This document shows, in pieces, positions 799-62,123 of a stretch of DNA of 64,000 nt. A model generated the notes under the pieces. That model saw only the letters and a list, made by a program, of their open reading frames with translations. It did no database searches and was not told the origin of the DNA. A program made the position numbers and the translations under genes. Source of the DNA: Kofleriaceae bacterium (GTDB taxonomy: Bacteria; Myxococcota_A; Polyangia; Haliangiales; Haliangiaceae); assembly GCA_035715365.1 (NCBI GenBank), contig DASTLB010000022.1:208242-272241 (forward strand). The letters are read 5' to 3'. Position 1 is the first letter of the stretch, and each line of letters starts with the position of its first letter.

Positions 799-2082
799 CT
801 ACTGCTTCGGCCGCGTGATCATGATGTGCCAGTTGTTGTTCGAGTCGATGTAGCCGAACCGGAACGGCGCCGGTCCCTTCGAGGCCTTCCACGCGTTGCG
901 CATGTCGAGGTCCTCCTTGCCACCGACGGCGAAGTCGAGCCCGGGCTGGACGAACTTGCCGTACGTCTCCTGCTCCATGCCCGCGGGCTTCGCGTACATC
1001 GGCGGGATCCCCGTCGAGTCGGAGATCATCCACGCGAGGTGATCGAGGATGTACTTGCGCATCGTCGTGAACTCGTCGCGCCACAGCAGGTAGCTCGCGC
1101 CCTTGACGATGATCGTCACCTTGCCCTTGGCCTCGAGGTGACGCAGCACGCCCGGCTCGGACTGCAGGTGCTTGTTGTCGAGGTTCCACGCGATGTGGCG
1201 GTGCGTGCGCAGCGTCGTCTCGCCGACCTTGCGATACGTCAGCTCGACGTTGCGGTACGACTCCGCGAACGCCGGGTTGTGCCAGCGCTCGGACAGCGGC
1301 TTCGTGTTCGACGTGTCGGCGTCGATCTTTGCCTGGTCGACGTAGATCAGCTTGCCGGTGTCGTCGATGTGGAAGTACCGCATGCCGACCGGCTCGTAAC
1401 CCGCGACGTGCATCGCGAGCAGGAACGACGACACCTGCCCGGGCACCGCGTTCTTCTGCTGCGCGGACAGGTTGACACTCGTGTTCGAGCCGTACGCGAC
1501 GAGCCACTCGATCTCCTTGCGAAACGCCGCGAGGCTCTTGTCGAGGTCGCCCGGCGTCAGTGACATCCAGCGCCGCGGATCGCCCGCGAGCTCGAGCGAG
1601 ATCGTCGTGATCTCGGTCGCGTCGGGGAACGCGATCAGCGCCGACAGCAGATCGCCGCCGCCGAACGGATAGACGATCGTCTTCGGGATGTCGGCCGGCG
1701 CGTGCTCGGCCATCCACTTCTTGACGATCTCGAGATTCGCCGCGCGGAACTTCTCGACGTCGGGCGCGATCGTCTTGCAGTGCTTGTCGACGACCTTCTG
1801 GAACTTCGCGAGGTCGTCGGGCAGCGGCCCTTCACCGCCGCAGCCGACGACGCGAAACAGCCGCTGCGCGTCGGCCGAGAAGTCGACGCCATCACCGGCC
1901 GGCGGCGCCGCGGCCGTATCGCTCGGCGCGCTGGCATCCGCGGCCGCGACCGCGGCATCGATCGCGGGCGCCGCGGCAGCGTCGGCAGCGACAGGTTTCG
2001 GCGGCTCGTGCGCGGGCTCGGACTTCTTGTCCTTGCAGGCAACGAGCGCGAGGGAACACACGAGCAGGGTCAGACTTCGCAC
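799..2082 (-). CDS. Secreted lipoprotein of unknown function, paralogue 1 of a three-member family (motif IVYPFGGGDL)
   Basis: The 427 aa ORF has a signal peptide with a lipobox (LVAC). It shares conserved blocks with the ORFs at 24586-25806 and 28067-29209: HCKK-like block, VYPF(A/G)GGDL, ITT(I/L)SLE(L/P)AGD, YRHI(A/M)(W/A)NLD and FRFGY. Confidence 0.7.
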   Translation of the reverse strand: MRSLTLLVCSLALVACKDKKSEPAHEPPKPVAADAAAAPAIDAAVAAADASAPSDTAAAPPAGDGVDFSADAQRLFRVVGCGGEGPLPDDLAKFQKVVDKHCKTIAPDVEKFRAANLEIVKKWMAEHAPADIPKTIVYPFGGGDLLSALIAFPDATEITTISLELAGDPRRWMSLTPGDLDKSLAAFRKEIEWLVAYGSNTSVNLSAQQKNAVPGQVSSFLLAMHVAGYEPVGMRYFHIDDTGKLIYVDQAKIDADTSNTKPLSERWHNPAFAESYRNVELTYRKVGETTLRTHRHIAWNLDNKHLQSEPGVLRHLEAKGKVTIIVKGASYLLWRDEFTTMRKYILDHLAWMISDSTGIPPMYAKPAGMEQETYGKFVQPGLDFAVGGKEDLDMRNAWKASKGPAPFRFGYIDSNNNWHIMITRPKQ

Positions 2083-2101
2083 GCGCGGACGATACGACAG
2101 C

Positions 2102-3004
2102 TCACCGGGCGGGTATTCCCGTGACGAGCACGTAGTGCGTCCCGGTGACGAACACCTGGCGGTGATGCTGCTGCAGGTACTTGCGATAGAACGCGATGTC
2201 CTTGATCAGCAGGCCGAGCTCGGCCTGGCGGAAGTTCTTCATCCGCGCGCCCGACGAGACTTCACCATCGAGGTAGCGACAGTTCGGGACGCCGACGATC
2301 ACCGAGCCGTCGGTGGCGAGATGATCCTGGACGACGCGGCGCAGGACCTCGCGATCGTCGATCCCGGCGCTCTGCAGCGTGCCGAGCGCGAGCACGAGGT
2401 CGAATCGCCCGAGCCCGAGCGGCGCGAGCACGTGGACGTCGGCCTCGTGGAACACGGCGTCGGGGAACCGGTCGCGCGCGATCGCGAGCGCCGACGCGCT
2501 GTGATCGATCCCGACGAACGCGGCCGCGAGATCCGGCGCGAGCGCGCGGACGAGCGCGATCTCGTCACCGGTGTTGACGCCGAGGCACAGGATCCGTGCA
2601 CCGGCCGGCAGCGCGCAGCGTGCGAGCGCATCGCCGACGTCGAGCACGAAGCCCGGATCCTCGAGCTTCGAGATCCGCGCGAATCCCGATGCCGTGCCGT
2701 ACTTCTCGGCGCCATCGCCGGACCACGCGGGCGCGTCCGCAAGCCGCTCGAACCGCAGCTCGATCGCCGGCGGCTCGACGCGCTGGACGAGCACGCGCGC
2801 ACCGGCGCGATCGGCGAGCTCGACCCATGCCGCGACCGCGCGATGGACGTACGACACACCGTCGATCACGACCCGCTCGCCGGTGTAGTGGCCACGACCG
2901 AGCGCCGGATCGAGCACGCGGATCTCCGAGGCGCCCGCGGCCTCGAGCTCCGCGGTGACGTGCGCGATCACCGCGAGCAGTGGCTCGTCGGTGAAGCCCC
3001 TCAC
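2102..3004 (-). CDS. Class I SAM-dependent methyltransferase
   Basis: Only the last roughly 298 aa of the 730 aa track ORF 2102-4294 are protein-like. Methyltransferase motif-I-like segment ARILCLGVNTGDE plus FVGIDHS. The GTG start at 3002-3004 overlaps the TGA stop of the upstream gene (GTGA, 4-nt overlap). The upstream part of the track ORF is an Arg-rich alternative frame of the 3001-4377 gene. Confidence 0.7.
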   Translation of the reverse strand: MRGFTDEPLLAVIAHVTAELEAAGASEIRVLDPALGRGHYTGERVVIDGVSYVHRAVAAWVELADRAGARVLVQRVEPPAIELRFERLADAPAWSGDGAEKYGTASGFARISKLEDPGFVLDVGDALARCALPAGARILCLGVNTGDEIALVRALAPDLAAAFVGIDHSASALAIARDRFPDAVFHEADVHVLAPLGLGRFDLVLALGTLQSAGIDDREVLRRVVQDHLATDGSVIVGVPNCRYLDGEVSSGARMKNFRQAELGLLIKDIAFYRKYLQQHHRQVFVTGTHYVLVTGIPAR

Positions 3005-4341
3005 CGCCGCGCAGCAGCTGCGCGCGCCTTGTCCTTGCGCTTCTGCGCGCTCTTCGAGACGACCTTCGCCGGGGCCGGCGCGATGTCCGGTGTCTCGACG
3101 ACCGACTCGACCGGCTGCTTCGCGGCGCCGCGCGTCCACTCGGGGCGCCAGAAGCCGACGACGGCGGCCGGGATCAGCGGCCACAGCAGCGGCGCGAGCA
3201 TCGGTTGCTTCAGCACGCCGGCGAGGTTCAGCAGCCCGACGACCACGAGCATCACGACGCGGCCGCGCGCGTACAGCTGCTGCTTTCTGCCGCGCAGGAA
3301 CAGCAGCAGGATGTCGAACGGGAAGAACACCATCATCGTCTCGTTCGTCTCGACGTACGGCAGCGGGCTGATGATCGCGAGGAACCACAGCACGAAGCCG
3401 AGGATCGTCGGCGGCAGGATCGAGAACGCGAGCCCGAGGCGCTGGAACCGGCCGAACAGCCGCGACAGCCACACCGGCGCGGTCGCGAGCAGGATCACGA
3501 GCGCGAACAGCAGGCGGCCGCTCGGCCCGTCGTGCAGCGACGGTGGGCCCTTGCGCTCGTAGACCGTGATCGGCTGGATGCCCCACTTCTTCGCGACCGC
3601 CTCGCGCAGGTAGTCGGGCAGGAACATGCGCTCGTAGTACGACGGCACGCGATCGGTCGCGGCGCCCATCGCGATGTCGGTGATCAGCAGCGGCACGCGC
3701 ATGCCGTAGAAGCCCTCGCGCGCGAGATCGCGAAACGTCCGGCCGTCGGTGGGCTCGTTCATCGAGCGCAGCGCACCGCCGGTCGCGTTGTCGAGGATGT
3801 CGCGGACGCGCGTCGTGCAGTTGTCCCAGAAGTGATCGTACGCGTAGTACTTGTTCTGCTCGAGGATGTCGCTCTCGAGCTTCGCGATGACCTGCTGCTT
3901 CTGCTCGCGCGATAGCGGCAACGGCTGGACCCAGATCGATCGATCCGCGTCGCGGTAGATGTCGAGCATCGGATCGGCGGCGATCTTGCCGACCCAGAAG
4001 CTCTTCGTGCCGCGGAAGAAGCCCCACGCCATCCCGAGCGGGTGCCCGAAGTCGCCGACGCCGTAGTTGTAACAGACGTCGCGATAGCGATCGTGGAACC
4101 GCAGGCACAGCGCGATGTGACCGTGGCGCTCCCAGATCAGCGAGCCGACGCCCATCGTGACGAGCTCGATCGTCGGCTCCTCGTCGTAGAGCTTCGCGAT
4201 CTCCGGCGGGCACTGCGTCGACTCGCACGCGAGCGGCAGCGGCTCCCAGTCCGGACCGCGGCGCCGCGCGTCGGCAGACACCGCCATGCCACACACGATC
4301 GCGAGCGCCAGCACCCAGATCCGGCCGAGACCAGCAGACAT
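3001..4341 (-). CDS. Membrane protein with an N-terminal signal peptide and C-terminal multi-TM region (DUF4105-like architecture)
   Basis: ORF 3001-4377. The internal Met at 4341 gives the signal peptide MSAGLGRIWVLALAIVCGMAVSADA. There is a periplasmic domain followed by 4-5 hydrophobic helices (LLFALVILLATAPVWL, ILGFVLWFLAIISPL, VVMLVVVGLLNLAGV, LLWPLIPAAVVGF). The family assignment is from memory and has not been searched. Confidence 0.55.
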   Translation of the reverse strand: MSAGLGRIWVLALAIVCGMAVSADARRRGPDWEPLPLACESTQCPPEIAKLYDEEPTIELVTMGVGSLIWERHGHIALCLRFHDRYRDVCYNYGVGDFGHPLGMAWGFFRGTKSFWVGKIAADPMLDIYRDADRSIWVQPLPLSREQKQQVIAKLESDILEQNKYYAYDHFWDNCTTRVRDILDNATGGALRSMNEPTDGRTFRDLAREGFYGMRVPLLITDIAMGAATDRVPSYYERMFLPDYLREAVAKKWGIQPITVYERKGPPSLHDGPSGRLLFALVILLATAPVWLSRLFGRFQRLGLAFSILPPTILGFVLWFLAIISPLPYVETNETMMVFFPFDILLLFLRGRKQQLYARGRVVMLVVVGLLNLAGVLKQPMLAPLLWPLIPAAVVGFWRPEWTRGAAKQPVESVVETPDIAPAPAKVVSKSAQKRKDKARAAAARR

Positions 4342-4400
4342 CTCCGCCAGTGTGTTGTGACGGCCGATTCTTCGCAAGCGAGTCGTGCTACCAGTGCGCC

Positions 4401-6353
4401 GTGGGCTTCACCGTCGACGCCACCGCGCCGGACTCGCGCGCTCGCAGCGCGACGCTCGTCACGCCCCACGGTGCGATCGAGACGCCGGTGTTCATGCCGG
4501 TCGGGACCCGCGGCACGGTGCGGACGCAGACGCTCGCTCAGCTCGAGCAGCTCGGCGCGCCGATCCTGCTCGCGAATACCTACCACCTCTGGGTCCGTCC
4601 GGGCCGCGCGGTGTTCGAGCAGCTCGGCGGGCTGCACCGGTTCATGGGGTGGTCGCGCGCGCTGCTGACCGATTCGGGAGGCTTTCAGATCTTCTCGCTG
4701 CCCGGGACGCGCGTGGCGGAGGACGGTGCCGAGCTCGACGGTCAGTGGCTGACGCCGGAGAGCTCGATCGCGATGCAGACCGCGATCGGAGCCGACATCA
4801 TGATGGTCCTCGACCACTGCGTCGCTGCGAAGAGCTCGCACGCCGAGGCGCGCGATGCGATGGACCGCACGCATCGCTGGGCACGCCGCAGCCTCGCGGC
4901 ACGCACGACCGTGCAGCAGCTGTTCGGGATCGTGCAGGGCGCGTGTGTACCGGAGCTGCGGCGCGAGAGCGCGGCGGTCGTGACCGCGCTGCCGTTCGAC
5001 GGCTACGCGATCGGCGGGCTCGCGGTCGGCGAGACGCGCGCCGAGCGGCAGGACATGACCGAGCTCGTGACGGACCTGCTGCCGCACGACCGCCCGCGCT
5101 ACCTGATGGGCGTCGGGACGCCGCTCGATCTGCTCGAGGGCGTGCACCGCGGCGTCGATCTGTTCGATTGCATCCTGCCGACCGCGCTCGCGCAGCAAGG
5201 TGTCGCGTTCACGTCGCGTGGCCGGATCGAGCTCGATCGCGGCGTCCACCGGCTGTCCGAGGTCGCGCTCGATCCGCGGTGCGACTGCGCGGCGTGCACG
5301 CGGCACTCGCGCGCGTACCTGCATCACCTCGTCAAGTGCAAGGAGCCGCTCGCGTGGCAGCTGCTCGCGACGCACAACCTCGCATTCTATCTGCGCCTGA
5401 TGTCCGATATCCGGACCGCGATCCGCGCCGGCACGTTCGCGCGGTTCGTCGTCGAGCAGCGCCCGATCCTCGGCGCCGCCGATCTCGATCATCCGCCCGG
5501 CAAGCATCCGCGCAAGAAGCGCGGCAAGCCGACCGCGCGCGGTGCGTTCGCGCTCCACGTCGATCCGGCGCGCGAGCGCGCGAGCATCCGCCACGTCGCG
5601 TCCGGCGAGATCATGCACTCGGTCAACGATCCGGACGTCGAGGCCGAGCGGATCTACATCGATCAGTCGCGCCGGATCGCGCACGCGCTCGCGAGGGCGA
5701 CGCCGCTCGTCGTCTGGGATGTCGGGCTCGGCGCGGCGCACAACGCGATGGCGCTCGTGCGCCGGCTCGCCGGTCGCGACGTGCCGTGCACGCTCGTCAG
5801 CTTCGAGCGCGATCTCGACGCGCTCCGGCTCGCGGTCATGCACACCGGCGCGTTTCCGCACCTGCGCCACGAGGCGCCGCATCGCCTGCTGCACGCGGGC
5901 CACTACGCGCGCGACGGCCTGACGTGGGTGCTGCGCGAGGGCGACTTCCTCGACCATCTCGACGCGGCGCCGCGGCCCGACGTGATCTTCTACGATCCGT
6001 TCTCGACGAAGGTCGACGGTCCGCTGTGGTCGTTCGCGACGCTGTCGCGGCTGTACGCGGTGCTCGCGCGCGAGCCGCGGCCGTGCGAGCTGTTCACGTA
6101 CACGACGTCGACCGCGGTGCGCACCGCGCTGCTCGCGGCCGGGTTTCACGTCGCGTGCGGCGTCGCGTCGGGCCCGAAGGCGGAGACCACGATCGCGCTC
6201 GTCCATCCCGAGCCCGGCGAGCACGCGTGGCTCGGCGCGGACTGGCTCGATCGGCGCGCGCGGTCGACGGCGCGTTGGCCTGCCGACGGCGATCCGGCAC
6301 AGATCGAACGCGCGCTCGCGGCGCACGCGCAGTTCCAGGTGCCACGTGGCTGA
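4401..6353 (+). CDS. tgt: Queuine tRNA-ribosyltransferase (Tgt) fused to a C-terminal MnmC-type (DUF752) SAM-methyltransferase-like domain
   Basis: Tgt motifs are present: RARSATLVTPHGAIETPVFMPVGT, DSGGFQ, GGLAVGE and a Zn site CDCAAC...H. The C-terminal roughly 250 aa align by eye to the E. coli MnmC N-terminal domain: VVWDVGLGAAHN~ETGFGTGLN, LVSFERDLDAL~FISFEKFPL, DVIFYDPFSTKVDGPLWS~DAWFLDGFAPAKNPDMWT, ELFTYTTSTAVRTALLAAGF~[20 protein letters not shown]. The start is chosen at GTG 4401 (MGFTVDATAPDSRARS, like E. coli MKFELDTTDGRARRG). The track start at 4350 is an alternative. Confidence 0.8.
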   Translation: MGFTVDATAPDSRARSATLVTPHGAIETPVFMPVGTRGTVRTQTLAQLEQLGAPILLANTYHLWVRPGRAVFEQLGGLHRFMGWSRALLTDSGGFQIFSLPGTRVAEDGAELDGQWLTPESSIAMQTAIGADIMMVLDHCVAAKSSHAEARDAMDRTHRWARRSLAARTTVQQLFGIVQGACVPELRRESAAVVTALPFDGYAIGGLAVGETRAERQDMTELVTDLLPHDRPRYLMGVGTPLDLLEGVHRGVDLFDCILPTALAQQGVAFTSRGRIELDRGVHRLSEVALDPRCDCAACTRHSRAYLHHLVKCKEPLAWQLLATHNLAFYLRLMSDIRTAIRAGTFARFVVEQRPILGAADLDHPPGKHPRKKRGKPTARGAFALHVDPARERASIRHVASGEIMHSVNDPDVEAERIYIDQSRRIAHALARATPLVVWDVGLGAAHNAMALVRRLAGRDVPCTLVSFERDLDALRLAVMHTGAFPHLRHEAPHRLLHAGHYARDGLTWVLREGDFLDHLDAAPRPDVIFYDPFSTKVDGPLWSFATLSRLYAVLAREPRPCELFTYTTSTAVRTALLAAGFHVACGVASGPKAETTIALVHPEPGEHAWLGADWLDRRARSTARWPADGDPAQIERALAAHAQFQVPRG

Positions 6354-7760: not shown

Positions 7761-8903
7761 GTGGTGTACGACCGGTTCGGTCGATATACGGTGTTCGAGT
7801 GTCTCGGGGCCGGCGGCATGGCGTCGGTGTACCGGGCGTCGGTCGACATCGGCGGTGGCGTCGAGCGCGAGGTCGCGCTGAAGCGGTTGTTGCCGCAGCT
7901 CGCCCACGACAAGGGCTTCGTCGACGACTTCATCCGCGAGGCGAAGCTCGCCGCGCAGCTCCATCACCCGAACATCGTCCGCATCCTCGAGCTCGGACGC
8001 AGCGCGGGCACGTACTTCATCGCGATGGAGCTGGTTCGCGGCCCGTCGCTGCTGAAGCTGATGAAGCTCGCGACCGCGCGGCGCACGCAGGCTCCGATCG
8101 GGGTCGTGCTCGCGATCTTGCTCGAGGTCTGCGACGCGCTCGACTACGCCGCGAACGCGACCGACGTCGACGGCGAGCTGCTGCAGATCGTGCATCGCGA
8201 TCTGTCGCCGTCGAACCTGATCATCACCGACGAGGGCCACGTCAAGATCATCGATTTCGGCGTCGCGAAGAGCCTGTCCGGCAAGTTCATGACGAACACC
8301 GGCATGGTCAAGGGCAAGCTCGGCTACATGGCGCTCGAGGTGCTCGCGGGCAAGCCGGTCGACGTGCGCGCCGACATCTTCTCGCTCGGCGTCGTCGCGT
8401 GGGAGCTGCTGTCCGGCCGCCGGCTGTTCGCGGGCGCGAACGAGATCGAGGTGATCGCGAAGCTGCGCGACGGCGCGCAGGATCCGCCGTCGACGTTCAA
8501 CATGCTGTGCCCGCCCGAGCTCGACGAGATCGTGATGCGCGCGCTGTCGCGCGACCGCGACGATCGCTGGCCGAGCGCGCTCGTGATGCGACGGACACTG
8601 GACGCGGTGCGACGGCGCTACCGCGAGGGCACGCGCGCGATCGCGGCGTGGTCGCAGAGCCTGCTGCCGCGCATGCCCGAGGTCACCGACGAGGCGACGA
8701 CGATGGAGCTATCGATGCGCGACATCGTGATCGAGCGCATGCTCCCGGCGGCGACCGCGATCGACATCGCGCCACAGGTCGATGATCCGAACGAGCACAC
8801 CGACGAGCATCCGCTCGACACCGTCGACGAGGACGACGCGGACACCGTCGAGCCCGAGCAGACGATGTTCATGGACATGGCACCGGCGCACGAAGACGAG
8901 TGA
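7761..8903 (+). CDS. Ser/Thr protein kinase (Hanks-type)
   Basis: Gly-loop LGAGGMASVY, VALKRL, HRDLSPSNL, DFG, and APE-like MALEV. Confidence 0.85.
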   Translation: MVYDRFGRYTVFECLGAGGMASVYRASVDIGGGVEREVALKRLLPQLAHDKGFVDDFIREAKLAAQLHHPNIVRILELGRSAGTYFIAMELVRGPSLLKLMKLATARRTQAPIGVVLAILLEVCDALDYAANATDVDGELLQIVHRDLSPSNLIITDEGHVKIIDFGVAKSLSGKFMTNTGMVKGKLGYMALEVLAGKPVDVRADIFSLGVVAWELLSGRRLFAGANEIEVIAKLRDGAQDPPSTFNMLCPPELDEIVMRALSRDRDDRWPSALVMRRTLDAVRRRYREGTRAIAAWSQSLLPRMPEVTDEATTMELSMRDIVIERMLPAATAIDIAPQVDDPNEHTDEHPLDTVDEDDADTVEPEQTMFMDMAPAHEDE

Positions 8904-8935
8904 TCTGCGCGCGCGGTCGGTGGCATGATCCGGCC

Positions 8936-10078
8936 ATGCGCACAGCCGTCCTGTGTGTGCTCGCGATCGGCTGCAAGTTCGAGCCGAGCCCGGCCGGTGA
9001 TGGCGGTGCGATCGGCGATGTCCCGCGCGACCTGCCCGACACGCCCGGCGGCTGCCAGTCGTACTCGACGCAGTTCGACACCTGCACGGTCGTGCCGCCC
9101 GGTGGCCCCGGCGCCGCGCTGCTGCTGAACGGCAACAACACGTACGACACCGACAGCGGCAACCTCGTCACGCCCGCGGGCTCGGTCGCGGTCACGCATC
9201 TCCAGGTCACGTCGCCCGCCGGCAAGATCGACGTCGTGTTCGTCGATGGCTTCACGCTCGGGACCGGCGCCACGCTGCGCGTCGACGGCGGGTTGCCGTT
9301 CGGGATCGCGTCGACCGGCGAGCTACGCGTCGACGGCTTGATCGATCTGTCCGACGACGGCGCGGGTGCGCGCAGCGACACCGCGTGCGCGGGCTCCGTC
9401 GGTGCGGACGCGAGCAATCGCAGCGGCGGCGCCGGCGGTGGTGGCGGCGGTGGTTTTCAGGGCACCGGCGGCACCGGCGGTCCCGGCGACAAGGACGGCG
9501 GCCCGGTCGCGGGTGCGGCGGGCGGCGTCGCGATCGCGTTGCCCGCGGGGCTCGTCGGCGGCTGCGACGGTGGGGGCGGCGGCGATGGTCAGGGCGGCGC
9601 GAGCGGCGGCAGTGCCGGCGATGGCGGCGGCGCGGTCCTGCTCGCATCGGCAACCGCGGTGCGGATCAGCGGCGCGATCAACGTCGGCGGCGGAGGCGGC
9701 GTGCGCGGTGGCGGCAACGGCGCGAGCGGCGGCGGTGGCGGCTCGGGCGGGATGATCCTCGTCGAGTCACCGCTCGTCGAGGTCAGCGGCGTGCTCGCGG
9801 CGAACGGCGGCGGCGGCGGTGAAGGCCAGACCACCGGCCAGAGCGGTAGCGTCGGGCTCGCCTCGGATCAGCCCGCGCCCGGCGGTGCCGGTGGCGATCC
9901 CGACGGCGGCGATGCCGGCAACGGCGGCGCGGGTGCGTCGCTCGCGGGCGGCTCGCCGGCCGATCTGCAAGATGGCGGCGGCGGTGGTGGCGGCGGGGGC
10001 GTGGGCTACGTCGGCATCCACTGCCCCGCGCCGACGATCAGCGGGATCGTGTCTCCCGCGGTCACGACGATCCCCTGA
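8936..10078 (+). CDS. Glycine-rich secreted lipoprotein, hypothetical
   Basis: The internal Met gives MRTAVLCVLAIGC with a lipobox. About 35% Gly, with runs of up to 10 Gly (GGGGGGGGGVGY). Possibly a beta-helix or adhesin-like protein. Confidence 0.5.
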   Translation: MRTAVLCVLAIGCKFEPSPAGDGGAIGDVPRDLPDTPGGCQSYSTQFDTCTVVPPGGPGAALLLNGNNTYDTDSGNLVTPAGSVAVTHLQVTSPAGKIDVVFVDGFTLGTGATLRVDGGLPFGIASTGELRVDGLIDLSDDGAGARSDTACAGSVGADASNRSGGAGGGGGGGFQGTGGTGGPGDKDGGPVAGAAGGVAIALPAGLVGGCDGGGGGDGQGGASGGSAGDGGGAVLLASATAVRISGAINVGGGGGVRGGGNGASGGGGGSGGMILVESPLVEVSGVLAANGGGGGEGQTTGQSGSVGLASDQPAPGGAGGDPDGGDAGNGGAGASLAGGSPADLQDGGGGGGGGGVGYVGIHCPAPTISGIVSPAVTTIP

Positions 10079-12469: not shown

Positions 12470-13795
<1,326 letters not shown>

Positions 13796-13969
13796 CGACA
13801 GGCGCGCAGGGTACCCCAGCGATCGATGTGCCGCAGCCCTTGCCCGAGCGCATCAGGCAAGTCTTGCCGTGGTCGGCAAGTGTTGCCGTCCGCAACGCGC
13901 GCTCGCGTCGTCGATTCGCGGAGTTCACGCGCAGCGTCGCGTGGTCCGCTTCGTGCTCGGCGGCACCGC

Positions 13970-15346
13970 ATGCGCAAACTGCCGAGCCTGGTCCTCGTGG
14001 TGGTCGCGGCGTGTGGCGACGGCACACCTGCACCTGCCACCGACGCGTCCCCTCCTCCTGATGTCCGCGAACCGGACGCTGCCTCGCCGACCGAGGACGA
14101 CTTCACCGCCGAGGAGCTCGCGATCCTCGCGACGCTGTCGCCGCTGCCCGCGGTCCCGGCGGATCCGACGAACGCGTTCGCCGACGATCCGAAGGCGGCC
14201 GCGCTCGGTCAGATGCTGTTCTTCGACAAGAGCTACTCCGGTGCGCTGATCGTCGGCGACGACGGCACGAACGGCGGGCTCGGCATGGTCGGCGAGACCG
14301 GCAAGGTCGCGTGCGCGAGCTGTCACTCCGCGGGCAGCGCGAACCTCGACGATCAGCGCACGATCCCGAACCACGTCTCGCTCGGCACGAACTACACGCC
14401 GCGCAACGCGCACGGCCTCGTCAACTCGGCGTTCTATCGCTGGGGCAACTGGGGCGGCCGGTTCGACTCGCAGTGGGCCCTGCCGCTCGCGGTCGCCGAG
14501 AACGCGAACCTGATGCGCAGCACGCGGCTCGACATCGCGCACATGCTGTTCAGGAAGTATCGCGCGCAGTACGACGCGACGTTCCCGGTGCCGCTCGATC
14601 CGGCGCTCGATCCGAACGCGGCCGACGCGTCGCGGTTTCCGCCGAGCGGCAAGCCGAAGGCGCTCGCGACCGATCCCGACGGCGCGTTCGAGGCGATGAC
14701 CGTCGAGGATCGCGCGATCGCGAACCGGATCTTCGTCAACTACGGCAAGGCGATCGCGGCGTACACGCGCACGCTCGTCAGCCGCGACGCCGCGTTCGAT
14801 CGCTATGTCGCCGGCGACCGGACCGCGATCTCGACGTCCGCGAAGCGCGGCCTCCACCTGTTCCTCGCGCACTGCACCGGCTGCCACACCGGGCCGAACC
14901 TCGCCGACGACGAGTTCCACGCGCTCGCGGTGCCACAGCGCGGCGATCACGTGCCGGCGACCGACCTCGGCCGGTTCCAGGACGTGCCGGGTCTGCTCGC
15001 GAGCCCGTTCAACACCGCGGGCGCATTCTCCGACGACACCACGACCGGCAAGCTCGACGGCCTCGTCCAGGCCGACGCGCAGAAGGGCCAGTTCCGCACG
15101 AAAAGCCTGCGCGGCGTGGCCCAGTCGGCGCCATACATGCACGCGGGCCAGCTCGCGACGCTCGCCGACGTGGTCGCGTTCTACAACGCGGGAGGCGGCG
15201 ATCCGGGCACGACCGGGATCGTGAAGGATCCGAAGCTCGCGCCGCTCGGGCTCACCGCCGAGCAACAGGCGGATCTCGTCGCGTTCCTGCAGACGCTGAC
15301 CGGCGAGCCGGTGCCCGCGATGCGGGTGACCGACACGTCGAAGTAG
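13970..15346 (+). CDS. Di-haem cytochrome c peroxidase family lipoprotein
   Basis: The internal Met gives MRKLPSLVLVVVAACGDG with a lipobox. Two CxxCH motifs (CASCHS, CTGCHTG). Family-typical GFRTKSLRGVAQSAPYMHAG block. The 5' 144 nt of the track ORF is treated as leader. Confidence 0.8.
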   Translation: MRKLPSLVLVVVAACGDGTPAPATDASPPPDVREPDAASPTEDDFTAEELAILATLSPLPAVPADPTNAFADDPKAAALGQMLFFDKSYSGALIVGDDGTNGGLGMVGETGKVACASCHSAGSANLDDQRTIPNHVSLGTNYTPRNAHGLVNSAFYRWGNWGGRFDSQWALPLAVAENANLMRSTRLDIAHMLFRKYRAQYDATFPVPLDPALDPNAADASRFPPSGKPKALATDPDGAFEAMTVEDRAIANRIFVNYGKAIAAYTRTLVSRDAAFDRYVAGDRTAISTSAKRGLHLFLAHCTGCHTGPNLADDEFHALAVPQRGDHVPATDLGRFQDVPGLLASPFNTAGAFSDDTTTGKLDGLVQADAQKGQFRTKSLRGVAQSAPYMHAGQLATLADVVAFYNAGGGDPGTTGIVKDPKLAPLGLTAEQQADLVAFLQTLTGEPVPAMRVTDTSK

Positions 15347-38352: not shown

Positions 38353-38370
38353 TCGACGTACGATCGGCGG

Positions 38371-40221
38371 ATGGGCGATGACCGGATCCCAACGCCGCGC
38401 ACCGTCGTCGAGGGTGGCGCGCGCACCGCGGCGACGAGCCCGGACTCGCACGTCGCGACGACCTCGGATGCGACCGAGCCAACGCTGCGGCCCGACGACT
38501 CGCGCGACGTGATCGCGACGAGCGACTCGCAGGCCGGCATCGCGATCCCGGCGGTCGAGTACCAGCTCGGCGAGCGGATCGGCAAGGGCGGCATGGGCGA
38601 GGTGATCGCGGCGCACGATCGCCGGATGGGCCGCGACGTCGCGATCAAGCGCATGCACGGCTCGCAGTCGGCGCGCGCGGTGTCGCGGTTCCTGCGCGAG
38701 GCGCGGATCCAGGCGCGGCTCGATCACCCGGCGATCGTGCCGGTGCACGAGCTCGGCGTCGACTCCGAGGGCTGCCCGTACTTCACGATGAAGCGGCTCG
38801 CCGGCGTGACGCTCGCGTCGCGGATCGCCGGCGGCGCGCCGATGATGCCGCTGCTGCGCGCCTTCGTCGACGTCTGCCTCGCGATCGATCTCGCGCACGC
38901 GCGCGGCATCGTGCATCGCGATCTCAAGCCCGCGAACATCATGCTCGGCGACTACGGCGAGGTCTACGTGATCGACTGGGGGCTCGCGCGCGTCATCGCG
39001 GAGCCGGCCGAGACCGACGCTGCGATCGACGCCGAGCCGACGCGCGACAGCCTGCCGACGTTGACCCGCGCCGGCGCCGTGCTCGGCACGCCGGGCTACA
39101 TGCCGCCGGAGCAGGTGCGCGGTGACGTCGTCGGGCCGGCGGCCGACATCTACGCGCTCGGCGCGATCCTGTTCGAGATCCTGACCGGGGAGACGCTGCA
39201 TCCGCCGGGCGACGAGGCGCTCGTGTCGACGCTGACCGGCGCGGCGGACTCACCGTCGCAGCGCGCACCGGATCGCGGCATCGCGCCCGAGCTCGACGCG
39301 ACGTGCAGCGCGATGCTCGCGCTCGAGCCCGAGCGCAGACCGACAGCGCGCGAGGTCGCCGATCGGGTGCGCGCGTACCTCGACGGCGATCGCGATCTCG
39401 AGCGCCGCCGCGCGCTCGCGCACGACTACCTCGCGGCCGCGCGCGTCGCGCTCGCGACCGGCGACACCGCCGCCGCGCTCGGCGAGGCCGGCCGCGCGCT
39501 CGCTCTCGCGCCCGACTCGCTCGACGCCGCGGGGCTGGTCTCGCAGCTGCTGCTCGAGCCGCCGAAGCAGCTACCGCCGCCGCTCGTCGCGAGCCTGCGC
39601 GAGCTCGATCGCGAGGCGCTGCGCAAGCGGTCGCGCCGCGCCACGTTCTCGTACGGGATGGTGTTCGCGTTCCTCGCGCTCGTCCCGGTGCTGCGGATCC
39701 AGAGCTGGAGCTGGCTCGCGGCGTTCTACGGCGTGCTCGCCGCGCTCGTCGGCTTCGCGTGGCACGGCACGCGCCGTGGCGATGTCTCGCCATACCTGTC
39801 GATGGCCGGCAACTTCGCGCTCGCCCTCGTGTGGACGCGGGTCGCGAGCCCGTTCGTGCTGACGCCGGTGATGATCTGCGGCGCGCTGATCGCGGTCGCG
39901 TCGCATCCGTGGAACCAGCAGCGGCCGTGGACGATCTTCGCGTGGATCGCCGTCACGGTGATGACGCCGTTCGCGCTCGAGGCCGCGGGCGTCCTCGAGC
40001 CGACGTGGAACATCGTCCCGGGCGCGCTGCAGATCTCGTCGACGATCTACGCGATCGACGGCTGGCGCGAGGCCGCGGCCGTGATCGGCGCGAACCTCGT
40101 GTTCATCCTGCTCGTCGGTTACTTCGCGTTCACGATGGCGCGGATCGCGCGCGAGGCGCAGCGCGAGGTGCACATCCAGGCGTGGCACCTCCGTCACCTG
40201 ATCCCGACCGTGCGCGCGTAG
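38371..40221 (+). CDS. Ser/Thr protein kinase with a C-terminal polytopic membrane domain (about 6 TM)
   Basis: GKGGMGEV, VAIKRM, HRDLKPANI, DWG and PGYMPPE motifs. The C-terminal 200 aa contain 5-6 hydrophobic helices. Confidence 0.85.
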   Translation: MGDDRIPTPRTVVEGGARTAATSPDSHVATTSDATEPTLRPDDSRDVIATSDSQAGIAIPAVEYQLGERIGKGGMGEVIAAHDRRMGRDVAIKRMHGSQSARAVSRFLREARIQARLDHPAIVPVHELGVDSEGCPYFTMKRLAGVTLASRIAGGAPMMPLLRAFVDVCLAIDLAHARGIVHRDLKPANIMLGDYGEVYVIDWGLARVIAEPAETDAAIDAEPTRDSLPTLTRAGAVLGTPGYMPPEQVRGDVVGPAADIYALGAILFEILTGETLHPPGDEALVSTLTGAADSPSQRAPDRGIAPELDATCSAMLALEPERRPTAREVADRVRAYLDGDRDLERRRALAHDYLAAARVALATGDTAAALGEAGRALALAPDSLDAAGLVSQLLLEPPKQLPPPLVASLRELDREALRKRSRRATFSYGMVFAFLALVPVLRIQSWSWLAAFYGVLAALVGFAWHGTRRGDVSPYLSMAGNFALALVWTRVASPFVLTPVMICGALIAVASHPWNQQRPWTIFAWIAVTVMTPFALEAAGVLEPTWNIVPGALQISSTIYAIDGWREAAAVIGANLVFILLVGYFAFTMARIAREAQREVHIQAWHLRHLIPTVRA

Positions 40222-42174
40222 CTACTCGAGCTGCCATTGATAGACGCCCGCGAGACCGGCCGCCGCGACGATGCGGCCCGGCAGCGGAACGTCGATCGCA
40301 CGCACGCTGTACGCGGTGTCCTGGCGCGCGAGCTCGGTCGGCGCCGCCGGGTTCGCGAGATCGATCACGATGATCCCGCGATCGTGACCGAGCACGGCGT
40401 GACCGGGCCACGTCGCGACCGACCACGTCGACGCGAGGTCCGGCTGGCGGACGATCGACAGCCGCGCCGGCGCCGCCGGATTCGAGACGTCGACGAGGTG
40501 GAACCCGTCCTGCGCGCACGCGACCACCGCGACGTTGCCATCGATTGCAACGTCCAGCGCATTCGCGCAATCCTGGTCGTACTTGCCGACGAGCACCGGC
40601 GTCGCGTTCGACACGTCGTAGATCTTGAGGCCGCCGGGCTCGAACAGCTGCTCGTCCGCAACGTACGCCGTCGTGCCGATGACCTTGACGTTGCTCGCCT
40701 TGCTCGTCTCGACCGAGCCGATGACCGCGGGCGCGGCCGGGTTGCTGATGTCGACGACGCGCAGGAAGCCGCCGCCGGTGCCCTCGGCGATGTATGCGCG
40801 ATCGCCCTCGATCGCGAGGCCGCCGGGCGCACCACCGGTCTGTACCGAGCCGAGCTCGACGAGCGCGGCCGGATCGGTCGTGTCGTAGATCCGCAAGCCG
40901 TACATCCAGTCGGCGACGTACGCGCGCGTACCGGCGACGCGGACGTCCTCGAACACGAGCGCCAGGCCATCCGGCGTCGGCGTCACGGTCGGCTCCGGCG
41001 AGCGGCCGAGCGACGCGAGATCGGAGAGGTTCGCCGAGCGCACGCCACCGACGATGTCCGCGGCGTAGATCGTCGAGCCCGCGGTCGCGATGCCGACGCA
41101 ATCGGCGCACAGCGAGACGTCGATCGTCTGCGGCGTCGGCGCGGTCGGCGCGGTGAGGTCGAGCGCGATCATCCGCCCGCGGTCGGTGACGATCGCGGCC
41201 GCGCTGCCGCCGACCGCCGCCGCGTTCGCGCCCTTCGTCGGTAGATCCAGCGGGCCGAGCTTCTTGATCGCGCTCAGCGTCGTGAGATCGAGGATGTACA
41301 GGCCATCGATCGCCGGGATGTACGCGATGCGGCCCGACACCGTGACCGCGCGCGCGAACGGTCCGCCGTCGGGCAGCCCGAGGTGGAACCGCTGGACCGG
41401 CGTCGCGATCGTCGTGACGTCGTACACGAAGATGCCGTCGATCCCGGCGGTGATCGCGAGGTTGCCGGTGATCGCGACGCCCTCGCTGCTGCCGAGGCTG
41501 CCCTCGCCGATCCGCGTCAGGCCCTTCGAGATGTTGAGCGCGCCGATGCCGGTCGAGCCGATGAAGCCGCGCGACCAGTAATAGAGGCGATTGCCGGAGA
41601 CCGTGAGGTTCGCGACGCCGAACTGGGTCACGGTGCGCGTGAGCGTCGGTGCGTCGGGATCGGCGAGCGACAGCTCGAGGATGCCCTGCTCCTGATCGGC
41701 GACGTACAGCACGCCGGTGCCGGGCTCGAGATCGTTGATCACCGAGCCACCGCCGGGCGGCGCGAGATCGATCACCTTGGTCTCGACGGGCGCGGCCGGA
41801 TTCGAGATGTCGAGCACGTGGATCACGGCGTCGAGATCGGTGCGCTCGGCGACGTACGCGCGCTCGCCGACGACCGCGACCGCGTTGACGACACCGCGCA
41901 GCGGCGCGCTCTCACCGACGAGCGTGCCGGCGGCGAGATCCCAGATCGCGAGCCGCGGCCCGACGCCGACGAACGCGCGACCATCGACGACCGTGACCGC
42001 GGTCGGTGCGCCACCGGACTGCGCGCGATCGAGCGGCACGACGGTGCTGCCGTCGGGCGGCGGCGGCGGATTCGCGTCGGGCTCGGGCTGCACGCGAAGG
42101 TTATCGCCACACCCGGCGATCCCGCCGGCCACCACCAACGCCAGGGACAGAACGAAGCGAGGATTGGCTGACAT
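40222..42174 (-). CDS. LVIVD-repeat beta-propeller lipoprotein
   Basis: Lipobox GGIAGC. Repeated (V/I)(L/V)D(I/V)SNPAAP blocks. Confidence 0.75.
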   Translation of the reverse strand: MSANPRFVLSLALVVAGGIAGCGDNLRVQPEPDANPPPPPDGSTVVPLDRAQSGGAPTAVTVVDGRAFVGVGPRLAIWDLAAGTLVGESAPLRGVVNAVAVVGERAYVAERTDLDAVIHVLDISNPAAPVETKVIDLAPPGGGSVINDLEPGTGVLYVADQEQGILELSLADPDAPTLTRTVTQFGVANLTVSGNRLYYWSRGFIGSTGIGALNISKGLTRIGEGSLGSSEGVAITGNLAITAGIDGIFVYDVTTIATPVQRFHLGLPDGGPFARAVTVSGRIAYIPAIDGLYILDLTTLSAIKKLGPLDLPTKGANAAAVGGSAAAIVTDRGRMIALDLTAPTAPTPQTIDVSLCADCVGIATAGSTIYAADIVGGVRSANLSDLASLGRSPEPTVTPTPDGLALVFEDVRVAGTRAYVADWMYGLRIYDTTDPAALVELGSVQTGGAPGGLAIEGDRAYIAEGTGGGFLRVVDISNPAAPAVIGSVETSKASNVKVIGTTAYVADEQLFEPGGLKIYDVSNATPVLVGKYDQDCANALDVAIDGNVAVVACAQDGFHLVDVSNPAAPARLSIVRQPDLASTWSVATWPGHAVLGHDRGIIVIDLANPAAPTELARQDTAYSVRAIDVPLPGRIVAAAGLAGVYQWQLE

Positions 42175-42273
42175 CGCGCGCCGTATAGCAGTCCGTGCGC
42201 GCGCCGTCATCGCGACGAGGCTGCGAGTATTTGCATCACCCGATGTCGCAGACGTGTCGCGGTGTCGCTCGAC

Positions 42274-55080: not shown

Positions 55081-58002
<2,922 letters not shown>

Positions 58003-58671
58003 GACCCCTCCTTGAACTGGTGCTGCGGTGAAATGGTGCAATGCGGGTATGATCTCGAGCGCGAGATCGCAGCCACCGAAGGCACGGCTCCGCCTGCAGC
58101 GTCCGGTGTCGGACCGGACGTGCGGAGCCCCTTAGGTGGATGACGAGATTCGCGAGCGAGAGCGGCGGTGATTCCGCGATGGCCTGCTTGGGAGAGCCGT
58201 GTACCGGATGCCTATGACAACTGCCGTGGACGAGCGGGACTGCCGGGACTGCCAGGACTGCGTTGCGTCAAAACGGCGAATAGACTTCCGAACGAGGGGG
58301 CGTGATCCAAGTGGGATATCGCGGCGTGGGTCTTTCTTAACGAGGTGAGCCGCGGAGGGCAAGAAAAAGAGCCACTAGATTTGGGGGGTCCAGCGGGAGT
58401 CAATCCTACATATAGTGTGTGGCCGTGTGAGATATTCACGTGGGCATCCTGTGGATTGACAGTGAATTGTGGATGCCTGTGGACGGGTTTCCGCAGCGAT
58501 TCCCGCCCGTTGATATGTCCTGTGGATAACCCTGTGGGTAGGACAAAAAGCGTGAATTGACGCGACGAGTTACGGGCAGATCCCCACTTGAAAAAAATTT
58601 GCGACGCGATCGCCGATGCGGTGGAAAGGGAGTTTCGGCCGCGCGCCCAACCGCGCGATCGCGACGCGGCC
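58003..58671 (-). promoter_or_regulatory. Long lower-GC leader/promoter region of nrdJ with direct repeats and NrdR-box-like palindromes
   Basis: (GGACTGCC)x3 at 58236-58262. CCTGTGG(A/G) x4 at 58448, 58476, 58519 and 58531. AT-rich palindromes ACATATAGTGT (58408-58418) and GTGAGATATTCAC (58427-58439). The GC content is visibly lower than in flanking DNA. Confidence 0.5.
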
Positions 58672-60621: not shown

Positions 60622-60700
60622 GGTCGATACAATACCGCAGGTCGTCGCGCGGTTCCGGGCCTGGTGGCCTGCAGATGTACGTGCGTGGTACGCAGCGTAC

Positions 60701-61546
60701 GTGCGCTGGCTCGCGACGCGCTTCGTGCTCGGAATCGTGCTCGCGTTCGTGCTGCCGGCGTGCAGCAAGAGCGAGCCCGCCTCGGGTGCGCCGAGCCGCG
60801 AGCTCCGGCTCGTCTCGCTGACCCCGTCGGCGACCGAGGTCGTCGCGGCGCTCGGCGCGACCGATCAGCTCGTCGGGGTCGACGAGTACTCGACGTATCC
60901 GCCGTCGGTGAAGGCGCTGCCGAAGGTCGGAAGTTTTCTGTCTCCGAACCTCGAGGTGATCGTCGGGCTGCGGCCGTCGGTCGTGATCGTCGACGACGTC
61001 CATGGCTCGACCGCGGGTGCGCTGCGCGATGCGAAGATCGAGACGCTCGCGGTCGCGATCCACGGGCTGCCCGACGTCAAGCGGGCCCTGAAGGAGGTCG
61101 GCGCGCGGATCGGCCGCACCGCCGAGGCCGACCGCGCGATCGCCGAGATCGACGGCGCGCTCGACGCGATGGCCGCGAGCCGACCCGCGAAGCGGCCGCG
61201 CGTGCTCGCGATCATCGACCGCGAGGCCGGCGGGCTCGGCAACCTCGTCGCCGCCGGCCCCGGCAGCTGGCTCGACGAGCTGCTCGCGGTCGTCGGCGCC
61301 GAGAACGTGCTCGCGGCGTCCGGCGTGCGGTATCCGAAACTGTCGCTCGAGGAGGTGCTGCGCGGCGAGCCGGACGTGATCCTCGATCTGTCGTACGGCG
61401 CGACCGCCGATCCCTGGCGGACGCTCGCGATCCCGGCCGCAAAGACCGGGAGAATCGTGACGTTGGCCGAGCCATACCTCGTCGCGCCGTCGCCGCGGGT
61501 CAAGCAGGCGCTCGACGCGCTCGCGGCGGCCGTGCGCGGCCCATGA
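60701..61546 (+). CDS. ABC-transporter periplasmic substrate-binding lipoprotein, BtuF/TroA-like (cobalamin or Fe-siderophore type)
   Basis: Lipobox VLPAC. RLVSLTPSATEVVAALGATDQLVGVDEYSTYP is typical of cluster A/BtuF-like binding proteins. Confidence 0.7.
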   Translation: MRWLATRFVLGIVLAFVLPACSKSEPASGAPSRELRLVSLTPSATEVVAALGATDQLVGVDEYSTYPPSVKALPKVGSFLSPNLEVIVGLRPSVVIVDDVHGSTAGALRDAKIETLAVAIHGLPDVKRALKEVGARIGRTAEADRAIAEIDGALDAMAASRPAKRPRVLAIIDREAGGLGNLVAAGPGSWLDELLAVVGAENVLAASGVRYPKLSLEEVLRGEPDVILDLSYGATADPWRTLAIPAAKTGRIVTLAEPYLVAPSPRVKQALDALAAAVRGP

Positions 61547-62038: not shown

Positions 62039-62123
62039 TCGCGGTGCGACATCGCCCGCGACGCGCGCGCGACGTCACGACATCACCCGCCAACACGCCG
62101 CGATCGCGTGCGCCCGCTGCGCC

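Follow-up and report, generated by a model that had tools for sequence, protein, structure and literature searches.

A tRNA-guanine transglycosylase fused in frame to an MnmC2-like methyltransferase domain in a Kofleriaceae genome and in relatives from several bacterial phyla

Queuosine (Q) biosynthesis is regarded as a solved linear pathway in which Tgt acts on the tRNA, followed by QueA and then by QueG or QueH. Here, we describe a gene that joins a bacterial Tgt, the tRNA-guanine(34) transglycosylase, to a methyltransferase domain of the MnmC2 type within one polypeptide. The gene lies in a 64,000-nucleotide stretch of DNA (hereafter the window; contig DASTLB010000022.1 of assembly GCA_035715365.1) from a Kofleriaceae bacterium. 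In the six-frame list of open reading frames (ORFs), it is one uninterrupted ORF at 4401-6353 on the plus strand, encoding 650 amino acids (aa) and ending in a stop codon at 6351-6353, with candidate GTG starts at 4350 and 4401. The product read from the GTG at 4401 is identical (100%) to the NCBI entry HEU0030694.1, which comes from a Kofleriaceae metagenome-assembled genome (MAG; 620-kb contig). The record name, 'tRNA guanosine(34) transglycosylase Tgt', leaves the methyltransferase half unmentioned, and public annotation as plain 'Tgt' hides a predicted second activity. The G+C content is 65-73% across the window, with no compositional break at the fusion gene. An earlier note, made from the letters of the window, had proposed an in-frame fusion of Tgt with an MnmC2/DUF752 domain and had suggested a domain search; hidden Markov model (HMM), fold and comparative evidence all agree with that proposal, and the search returned PF01702 (TGT) at aa 13-352 (E 1.6e-132) and PF05430 (Methyltransf_30) at aa 515-599 (E 1.9e-10). 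All features of the fusion gene given below are on the plus strand.

The Tgt domain (aa 13-352, 4437-5456) belongs to the bacterial type of tRNA-guanine(34) transglycosylase that uses preQ1 (7-aminomethyl-7-deazaguanine). Besides the PF01702 match, it passes the threshold of the NCBIfam Tgt equivalog TIGR00430 (402.3 bits vs a cut-off of 306.75), and its best sequence matches in the PDB are the Tgt enzymes of T. maritima, E. coli and Z. mobilis, to which the N-terminal 360 residues correspond over the full length, including the catalytic aspartates, the preQ1 pocket and the zinc site. In contrast to these enzymes, the fusion carries a 290-residue C-terminal extension. Residue conservation was scored in 75 full-length fusions (the window protein and 74 others), with Z. 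mobilis numbering fixed by alignment to 1enu. Asp91 of the DSGGFQ motif (4671-4673; Z. mobilis Asp102), Asp256 of the FDC motif (5166-5168; the catalytic nucleophile Asp280), Asp156 and the GGLAVGE segment at aa 205-211 (5013-5033; Gly229-Glu235) are unchanged in 75/75 fusions, and with Cys158 and Met260 included, these residues are found in the window protein and in 74-75 of the 75. The GGLAVGE pocket, identical also in E. coli Tgt, retains Val233, which is the signature of the bacterial preQ1 type. The CxCxxC...H zinc site (Cys294, Cys296, Cys299 and His325 at 5280-5375; C318, C320, C323 and H349 in Z. mobilis) was located by alignment to solved Tgt structures and is invariant across the full-length fusion alignment. 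The Tgt hallmarks that the earlier note had seen in this half are thus real, with PF01702, TIGR00430 and the intact catalytic and zinc-binding residues all pointing the same way.

One segment of the Tgt half departs from the canonical enzymes. Both Arg286 and Arg289 are arginine in the E. coli, T. maritima and Z. mobilis enzymes, and the corresponding positions in the window protein are Ala262 and Gln265 (5184-5195), so that the conserved PTRxARxG motif reads PTALAQQG; in the fusion clade it reads P(T/S)(Q/A)LAQ(R/Q)G, with both arginines lost. At the Arg286 position, arginine occurs in 0/75 fusions, replaced by Gln, Ala or Ser, and at the Arg289 position in 1/75, with Gln in 71/75. This loss marks the fused Tgt domains as a derived paralogue, and we treat the change as a marker only. 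In the RNA-bound form of Z. mobilis Tgt, the two arginines presumably touch the backbone of the RNA. Judged from its sequence, the Tgt half is a complete enzyme with this one derived feature, and it is predicted by homology to exchange G34 for preQ1 in tRNAs that carry a GUN anticodon.

The C-terminal half (aa 381-650, 5541-6350) is an MnmC2-like class I S-adenosylmethionine (SAM)-dependent N-methyltransferase domain. It scores 41.1 bits with PF05430 against a gathering cut-off of 22 (Pfam), but stays below the threshold of the NCBIfam MnmC2 equivalog NF033855, with 57 bits at aa 401-593 vs a cut-off of 136. This threshold is strict, because the experimentally validated MnmC2 of A. aeolicus itself scores only 113 (partial sequence); the fusion clade scores 55-75 bits. 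When the C-terminal domain and its relatives were made into a profile, the best match was A. aeolicus MnmC2 (PDB 3vyw), aligned along nearly all of its length (E 7e-22), followed by the MnmC2 domains of the E. coli and Y. pestis MnmC proteins. Modelled with AlphaFold2, aa 364-650 reached a predicted local distance difference test (pLDDT) score of 94.4 and a predicted template modelling (pTM) score of 0.91, and in a Foldseek search of the PDB its top nine matches were all MnmC2 or MnmC entries, of which 3vyw, 2qy6, 3ps9 and 3awi were the best (for 3vyw E 1.4e-13, template modelling score ~0.65, 19% identity). The earlier note's reading of this half as DUF752/MnmC-like holds, as do its motif pairings, the HMM alignment placing VWDVGLGAA on the MnmC2 GxGxG motif and PDVIFYDPFS...W on DAWFLDGFAPAKNPDMW.

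The functional residues of MnmC2 enzymes are known from structures, which assign roles to the GxGxxxN of motif I, the Glu of motif II, the Asp of motif III and the Asp and Phe of the DxF motif (PMC3527978, PMC3648344). These enzymes methylate an aminomethyl group that reaches SAM through a narrow channel, with the DxF Asp acting as base, and activity is abolished in the E. coli D178A variant (PMC3527978). In the window protein, motif I (WDVGLGAAHNA, 5715-5747) contains the GxGxxxN that binds the carboxyl/methionine part of SAM (PMC3527978), and its D, G, G and N are invariant in 75/75 fusions. Motif IV holds the catalytic Asp532-Pro-Phe534 (5994-6002), in which Asp532 corresponds to E. coli Asp178 and A. 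aeolicus Asp193, with D in 75/75, P in 73/75 and F in 74/75. Taken across the 75 fusions, D-V-G-L-G, N, SFE and D532 are unchanged, and the SAM motifs DVGLGA..N, SFE and GDF together with D532-P-F534 are invariant or nearly so. The likeness to A. aeolicus MnmC2 and to the N-terminal domain of E. coli MnmC (3awi, 3ps9) covers the fold, motifs I-III and the DxF residues, and extends to a conserved Arg and Lys of the C-terminal half and to an N-terminal E-x-[MY]-H-S element. By homology, the fused domain would be expected to N-methylate an aminomethyl group, as MnmC2 does.

The fused domain is also divergent, with ~19% identity and 57 vs 136 bits, and it differs from MnmC2 in two places. The first is the loop after motif IV, canonically (S/A)PxKNP(E/D)(L/M)W and including E. 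coli Pro182, which in most fusions has become S-x-K-(T/V)-D-x-x-L-W; the window protein, with STKVDGPLW, departs from the canonical pattern. In A. aeolicus, Asn200 and Glu202 of this loop bind the SAM adenine (PMC3527978). The second is a conserved, clade-specific C-terminal extension of ~50 residues, WLxR(W/x)xRS...H(P/x)QF, which is absent from solved MnmC2 structures. Further, the MnmC2 domain of E. coli MnmC is fused to the MnmC1 oxidase, whereas here the partner is Tgt. We conclude that the C-terminal half, though divergent, is truly a methyltransferase of the MnmC2 type. Both halves are under strong purifying selection, their catalytic residues being unchanged in 75/75 fusions, and neither can be seen as a decaying passenger.

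The two domains are joined by a linker at aa 361-380 (5481-5540), DLDHPPGKHPRKKRGKPTAR, which is rich in proline, basic and of low pLDDT. Across the 75 fusions, the linker is 14-23 aa long (median 20) with a median net charge of +2. In the full-length AlphaFold model, the two domains are predicted with confidence (mean pLDDT 90) and the linker has the lowest pLDDT, ~68-72; the pTM is 0.60. The picture suggested by the model is one of two rigid domains on a flexible tether.

To place the fusion among bacteria, genomes of 185,579 species, one for each, were scanned with the C-terminal profile as query, and at least 584 stretches were found to encode a relative of the methyltransferase domain. 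The best 80 of these at least 584 come from Kofleriaceae/Haliangiales, Opitutaceae and other Verrucomicrobiota, Bdellovibrionota/Oligoflexia, Binatia, Kiritimatiellia, Leptospiraceae and Riflebacteria. In 79 of these 80 best loci, Tgt and methyltransferase are contiguous in one frame, the remaining locus being cut by a contig end, and the 79 span at least six phyla; uninterrupted products of 627-767 aa were recovered from 74 of the 80. Among 1.84 billion protein representatives clustered at 50% identity, the domain profile matched 533 clusters at E <= 1e-30, 1,858 at E <= 1e-10 and 5,171 at E <= 1e-3. The 120 best full-length matches from two protein searches were all fusions (120/120), and almost all of their records are named 'Tgt' or 'queuine tRNA-ribosyltransferase'. 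Tgt is the only recurrent fusion partner in the methyltransferase clade. A cultured example, recovered by a full-length search seeded with a Lacunisphaera MAG fusion, is the 680-aa protein P0409 in the closed genome of Lacunisphaera limnophila IG16b (CP016094.1), encoded at 3640483-3642525. The survey of spread that the earlier note had suggested has therefore placed the architecture in hundreds of species and at least six phyla. The note had called the fusion unusual, which stands only relative to model organisms, given this spread and a published listing (bioRxiv 10.1101/2023.12.21.572861).

These data also bear on the possibility that the junction is an artefact, through misassembly of a MAG or a missed stop codon or frameshift, or that the second domain is a dead RNA-binding appendage. 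Such an explanation could appeal to the metagenomic origin of the source genome and to two related loci that are frameshifted inside the Tgt part (L003 and L041, described below), but it is effectively refuted by the 74 independent uninterrupted fusions, one of them in the closed genome of the cultured L. limnophila IG16b, by the invariant SAM-binding and catalytic residues and by the fold predicted with high confidence. The frame in the window is not an assembly accident, because the 74 further uninterrupted fusions, of 627-767 aa, come from independent genomes. The fusion is neither an assembly artefact nor rare.

Several loci among the relatives deserve mention in their own right. At L003:7217-9266 and L041:8841-10837, the frameshift inside the Tgt part leads gene callers to give a 421-aa protein beginning 'MFDC...', and many database entries of ~420-430 aa that start with MFDC probably represent the same truncation and not a separate architecture. 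One fusion each was found on two separate contigs (L049 and L083) of the Candidatus Udaeobacter MAG DASQUN01; the pair could be true paralogues, strain heterogeneity or bin contamination. Two proteins, P0217 (504 aa) and P0261 (505 aa), have ~200 extra N-terminal residues that are not Tgt, one of them with a weak AMIN match; they could represent a different fusion, but a miscalled start is the more probable cause, and we did not take them as evidence of another fusion partner.

The architecture has been noticed before. A single sentence of the preprint 'Alternate routes to mnm5s2U synthesis in Gram-positive bacteria' mentions a TGT+MnmC2 fusion, and the supplementary tables there record it in 3/968 benchmark genomes, namely Verrucomicrobia bacterium IMCC26134, L. 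limnophila IG16b (WP_069963108.1) and Verrucomicrobia bacterium HZ-65 (bioRxiv 10.1101/2023.12.21.572861). The listed proteins share the architecture (~650-700 aa, PF01702 followed by MnmC2) and the clade of the window protein, the differences being that the present gene is from the Myxococcota (Kofleriaceae) and that the preprint gives the listing without functional analysis, scale or a link to an extra tgt. No functional study turned up when the full-text literature was searched for the fusion, PF05430 or RNA with methylated preQ1. The architecture is therefore already catalogued, in InterPro-style domain data and in one preprint sentence, and the gene in the window is a further member from a different phylum. 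New relative to the searchable literature are how widely the fusion is distributed, the finding that both active sites are invariant, the loss of Arg286/Arg289, the presence of a complete Q pathway and an extra tgt alongside the fusion, and the preQ1-methylation hypothesis set out below.

The same tables allow the genomes with the fusion to be compared with others. In each of the three, the fusion is the sole protein of COG4121 (the MnmC family), MnmA, MnmE and MnmG are present, and MnmC1 and YtqA/MnmL are absent; a gene of the MnmC family is absent from Opitutus terrae, Akkermansia, Coraliomargarita, Opitutaceae TAV5 and Haliangium ochraceum (10.1101/2023.12.21.572861). For queuosine genes, we relied on the COG counts of other authors for the same genome set (PMC10570037, Data S4). 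The genomes with the fusion have two (HZ-65 and IMCC26134) or three (L. limnophila IG16b) tgt genes (COG0343), each with one queF, one queA and one queG/H. A single copy of each of these four is counted in Opitutus terrae, Akkermansia and Coraliomargarita, none of which has the fusion. Two further genomes without it are Methylacidiphilum (queF 0, tgt 1, queA 1, queG/H 1) and Opitutaceae TAV5 (queF 1, tgt 2, queA 1, queG/H 1, with two queC). Within the first ~100 rows of Data S4, only one genome has more than one tgt (PMC10570037). By these counts, the fusion appears to be an additional tgt-family gene in the three genomes, which is a further difference from the single-domain enzyme, as the fusion coexists with another member of the family. 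Since the three have the full de novo Q pathway, the fusion is no replacement for QueA, and the candidate explanation that it replaces QueA was discarded on the presence of queA and queG/H (PMC10570037).

The analysis shows what the two domains are, that their catalytic residues are intact, that the fusion is widely conserved and that its tether is flexible. Beyond this, we propose a two-step reaction, in which the methyl acceptor, the order of the steps and the RNA target are inferred. The N-terminal Tgt domain would first swap a guanine in RNA for preQ1, by homology at G34 of GUN-anticodon tRNAs. The tethered MnmC2-like domain would then transfer a methyl group from SAM to the primary amine on the 7-aminomethyl substituent, the reaction that MnmC2 carries out on 5-aminomethyl-(2-thio)uridine (nm5U or nm5s2U), giving 7-(methylaminomethyl)-7-deazaguanosine ('methyl-preQ1'). 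We put this proposal forward as the one we favour, while judging the case for it to fall just short of evenly balanced. A pyrimidine's C5 and a 7-deazapurine's C7 lie at matching places in the major groove, equally many bonds away from the glycosidic nitrogen. That nm5U and preQ1 each have an aminomethyl group on a major-groove carbon two bonds from this nitrogen, an exact chemical and geometric likeness, speaks for methylation of preQ1. We also count in its favour the conserved and exclusive pairing with Tgt, the natural occurrence of the proposed product in DNA (described below), the altered arginine motif with its presumed RNA contact, and the divergence of the methyltransferase clade, which a long branch separates from the MnmC2 of A. 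aeolicus and E. coli and which scores 55-75 bits on the MnmC2 equivalog. In Verrucomicrobia, MnmC2-type domains appear to occur only fused. An extra Tgt whose catalytic residues are intact would be hard to account for if it did not work together with its fused partner. Because the fusion coexists, in the tabulated genomes, with a complete queuosine pathway and a further tgt-family gene, a specialised parallel branch is likelier than a replacement of QueA; such a branch might serve a tRNA subset, particular conditions or an altered RNA target, and, given the loss of Arg286/Arg289, the target set may differ from that of the housekeeping Tgt.

A number of observations weigh against preQ1 methylation, and many of them come from relatives of the methyltransferase that are not fused. 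Stand-alone members of the clade, ~270-300 aa long and consisting of the methyltransferase domain alone, are common. In a neighbour-joining tree of 168 complete domains, crude but informative, they account for ~75 of the 168 and are both basal to and interspersed with the fusions. The stand-alone forms adjoin housekeeping genes (pth, prs, ychF, leuS, rpoBC), and no queuosine or mnm genes adjoin them at the loci examined; the simplest reading is that these members are ordinary MnmC2. Between canonical MnmC2 and the fusions, the active-site motifs form a continuous gradient, with the stand-alone forms in the middle. Of four marker residues of the canonical loop, none is kept in 69/91 fused domains and three or four are kept in 27/75 stand-alone ones, while the fusions P0174, P0218 and P0223 keep the canonical SPxKNPE(L/M)W loop (three or four markers). 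Because the change is gradual through stand-alone forms and the loop is canonical in a few fusions, it is separate from the fusion event, and we draw no support from it for a new substrate, having rejected the idea of a clean specificity switch in the methyltransferase.

Other points in the same direction concern the fusions themselves. The full-length AlphaFold model (pTM 0.60) supports no fixed arrangement of the two domains. Neighbourhood clustering of 995 ORFs from 81 fusion loci revealed no conserved gene neighbourhood, with no family common to more than seven loci, and neither queA nor any other que or mnm gene adjoins the fusion at the loci examined; as there is no recurrent neighbour, genomic context gives no functional clue, and the fusion gene is effectively monocistronic and self-contained. 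The methyl acceptor is one that we infer from the logic of the fusion and from chemical analogy only. Since the three tabulated genomes have both queA and queG/H, the fusion does not take over the usual fate of preQ1-tRNA there. Lastly, the second COG0343 gene of these genomes, known by COG count alone, could be DpdA-like, which would make the fusion the housekeeping Tgt.

Many of the same data would suit a protein with two independent activities, in which the Tgt half serves Q34 of tRNA Asp, Asn, His and Tyr, the C-terminal domain methylates nm5(s2)U34 to 5-methylaminomethyl-(2-thio)uridine (mnm5(s2)U34) in tRNA Glu, Lys and Gln, and the fusion only balances their expression; as in Aquifex aeolicus, MnmEG would supply the nm5 substrate by its ammonium route. 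The closest characterised relative, A. aeolicus MnmC2, is a stand-alone enzyme doing just this methylation (PMC3527978), all SAM-binding and catalytic motifs are kept, and the common stand-alone relatives in housekeeping contexts and the continuity of active-site motifs with canonical MnmC2 fit equally. All three fusion genomes encode MnmA, MnmE and MnmG; with no other MnmC family protein, MnmC1 or MnmL there, the fused domain would be their sole mnm5s2U route. The flexible linker and the pTM of 0.60 suggest that the domains could act separately, and the preprint authors filed the fusion among MnmC2 variants (10.1101/2023.12.21.572861). The earlier note had allowed for either two combined activities or a DUF752 domain repurposed for the queuosine pathway, and had held that Q34 and mnm5s2U34 are found on different sets of tRNAs. 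The tRNAs do differ, but it is established knowledge that one set decodes the NAY half and the other the NAR half of shared split codon boxes, and a pairing of two otherwise unrelated activities therefore has a rationale of its own.

We nevertheless rank two independent activities, the main rival, below preQ1 methylation and as rather less likely than not. Tgt needs a U33-G34-U35 loop, so that the tether gives the MnmC2 domain no access to U34 tRNAs, and an operon would suffice for co-expression. In MnmC, the other characterised fusion of an MnmC2 domain, the parts catalyse consecutive steps (PMC3648344). An additional tgt-family gene would make a fused Tgt with a housekeeping role redundant, yet its catalytic residues are invariant. 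Finally, Opitutus, Akkermansia, Coraliomargarita and Haliangium have neither the fusion nor a gene of the MnmC family; in these lineages, the domain is seen only in company with Tgt.

Within the queuosine pathway, the methyltransferase could instead act on free preQ1, with the Tgt half inserting the N-alkylated base afterwards, or on the secondary amine or some other atom of mature Q or epoxy-Q in tRNA, or the Tgt half could have a new RNA or position. These variants share the fusion logic of preQ1-34 methylation. Bacterial Tgt is reported to accept a preQ1 alkylated on the aminomethyl nitrogen, azido-propyl-preQ1 (PMC9561289), Q-tRNA would be at hand since queA and queG/H coexist with the fusion, and the loss of Arg286/Arg289 suggests altered RNA handling, the RNA contact of these residues being itself a presumption. 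We regard them as improbable nonetheless: characterised MnmC2 enzymes act on tRNA, not on free bases (PMC3527978, PMC3648344), the base pocket of the Tgt half (D102, D156, C158, GGLAVGE, M260) is the same as in preQ1-type enzymes, this half passes the equivalog threshold for G34 transglycosylases, and no data favour the variants over methylation of preQ1-34.

A methylated preQ1 has a natural precedent in DNA. N-methyl-preQ1 (mdPreQ1) occurs in phage DNA, where DpdA inserts the base and DpdM then methylates it (PMC10516641). The net reaction proposed here, from preQ1 to N-methyl-preQ1 after a Tgt-family transglycosylase, would be the same by analogy, although the enzymes differ: DpdM is a DUF3109 metal-binding protein of another fold, with a CxxxCxxCC motif, and acts on DNA (PMC10516641), whereas the fusion pairs a Rossmann-fold SAM methyltransferase with a tRNA-type Tgt and not with DpdA. 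A relationship to DpdM was rejected, the two belonging to different families and the fusion protein having no DUF3109 match in Pfam. That the fusion makes an RNA counterpart of phage mdPreQ1, an undescribed nucleoside of tRNA or other RNA formed in parallel to QueA and QueG in hundreds of environmental species of Verrucomicrobiota, Myxococcota, Bdellovibrionota and others, seems to us conceivable but rather more doubtful than not. The canonical SAM-using enzyme on the aminomethyl nitrogen of preQ1-34 is QueA, which acts directly after Tgt and transfers a ribosyl group. By analogy, the fused domain would compete with or run parallel to the QueA step, while being unrelated to QueA in sequence and reaction (methyl vs ribosyl), and queA is co-present in the three tabulated genomes.

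The fusion itself is no astonishment to the specialist, but it poses a concrete and possibly pathway-extending question. If preQ1 is methylated as proposed, the queuosine pathway would gain a branch, and several phyla abundant in soil and freshwater might gain a new wobble nucleoside. If the two halves work independently, the fusion would be the sole mnm5s2U route in these lineages and the first physical coupling of Q34 and xm5U34 enzymes, with a bearing on the balance of NAY and NAR decoding. As cultured strains with closed genomes carry the fusion (Lacunisphaera limnophila IG16b, Nibricoccus aquaticus HZ-65), the question is directly testable.

Some loci with stand-alone members of the methyltransferase clade also showed features of note. 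On a 1.38-Mb contig of a Bdellovibrionota MAG (GCA_040384145.1; L001), a fusion at 987-3008 lies directly downstream of truA, a gene for tRNA modification in the anticodon arm, and a stand-alone paralogue at 8001-8837 lies 5 kb from the fusion. The two methyltransferase domains are 55% identical, and the two copies may have different substrates. In two unrelated samples (L089:2776-10858 and L090:6170-10423), a ychF-pth-prs block lies a few kb upstream of stand-alone members; a rhodanese gene abuts one of these members, and no queuosine genes are nearby.

Turning to the surroundings of the fusion gene, a YchJ-like gene (HEU0030695.1; 6346-6735, plus strand; PF17775, E 2.6e-30) follows directly and is a neighbour outside the fusion system. 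The 8-nt overlap of the two genes pointed out in the earlier note is real by the ORF list and the PF17775 match, but it is a local accident and no operon signature, the ychJ adjacency being missing from the other Kofleriaceae fusion loci; as an incidental feature, unconserved even within this family, it was set aside as a functional signal. On the other side, a gene for a membrane protein with an Lnb-N domain (3001-4377, minus strand) is divergent from the fusion gene, with 23 nt between the two start codons. With so small a gap, the promoters must sit inside the neighbouring coding regions, and a riboswitch or leader upstream of the fusion gene is impossible. In the rest of the 64-kb window, no queuosine genes, mnm genes, tRNA genes or Rfam families such as the preQ1 riboswitch were found. 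A tblastn search with an E. coli QueA query in the window and in 1.37 Mb of fusion-flanking DNA gave no match, which is weak evidence as chance alone would yield few matches.

The remainder of the window includes several genes unconnected with the fusion. A 392-aa ORF at 8900-10078 (plus strand) encodes poly-Gly and Gly-Ala runs, and G+C reaches 0.80 with a GC skew of +0.20 at 9501-10000. At 55081-58131 (minus strand) lies a class II (B12-dependent) ribonucleotide reductase with a TSCPD domain, whose C-terminus has a weak zinc-ribbon match to a Cas12f1-like TNB domain (E 3.9e-4, below the cut-off). The 64 kb also hold three genes for Ser/Thr protein kinases (7761-8903 and 38353-40221 on the plus strand, 58672-60864 on the minus strand), multiple genes of this kind being typical of Myxococcota. 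Two proteins with LVIVD repeats are encoded at 40222-42273 and 62007-63635, and two di-haem cytochrome c peroxidase/MauG-like genes at 2-655 and 13793-15346.

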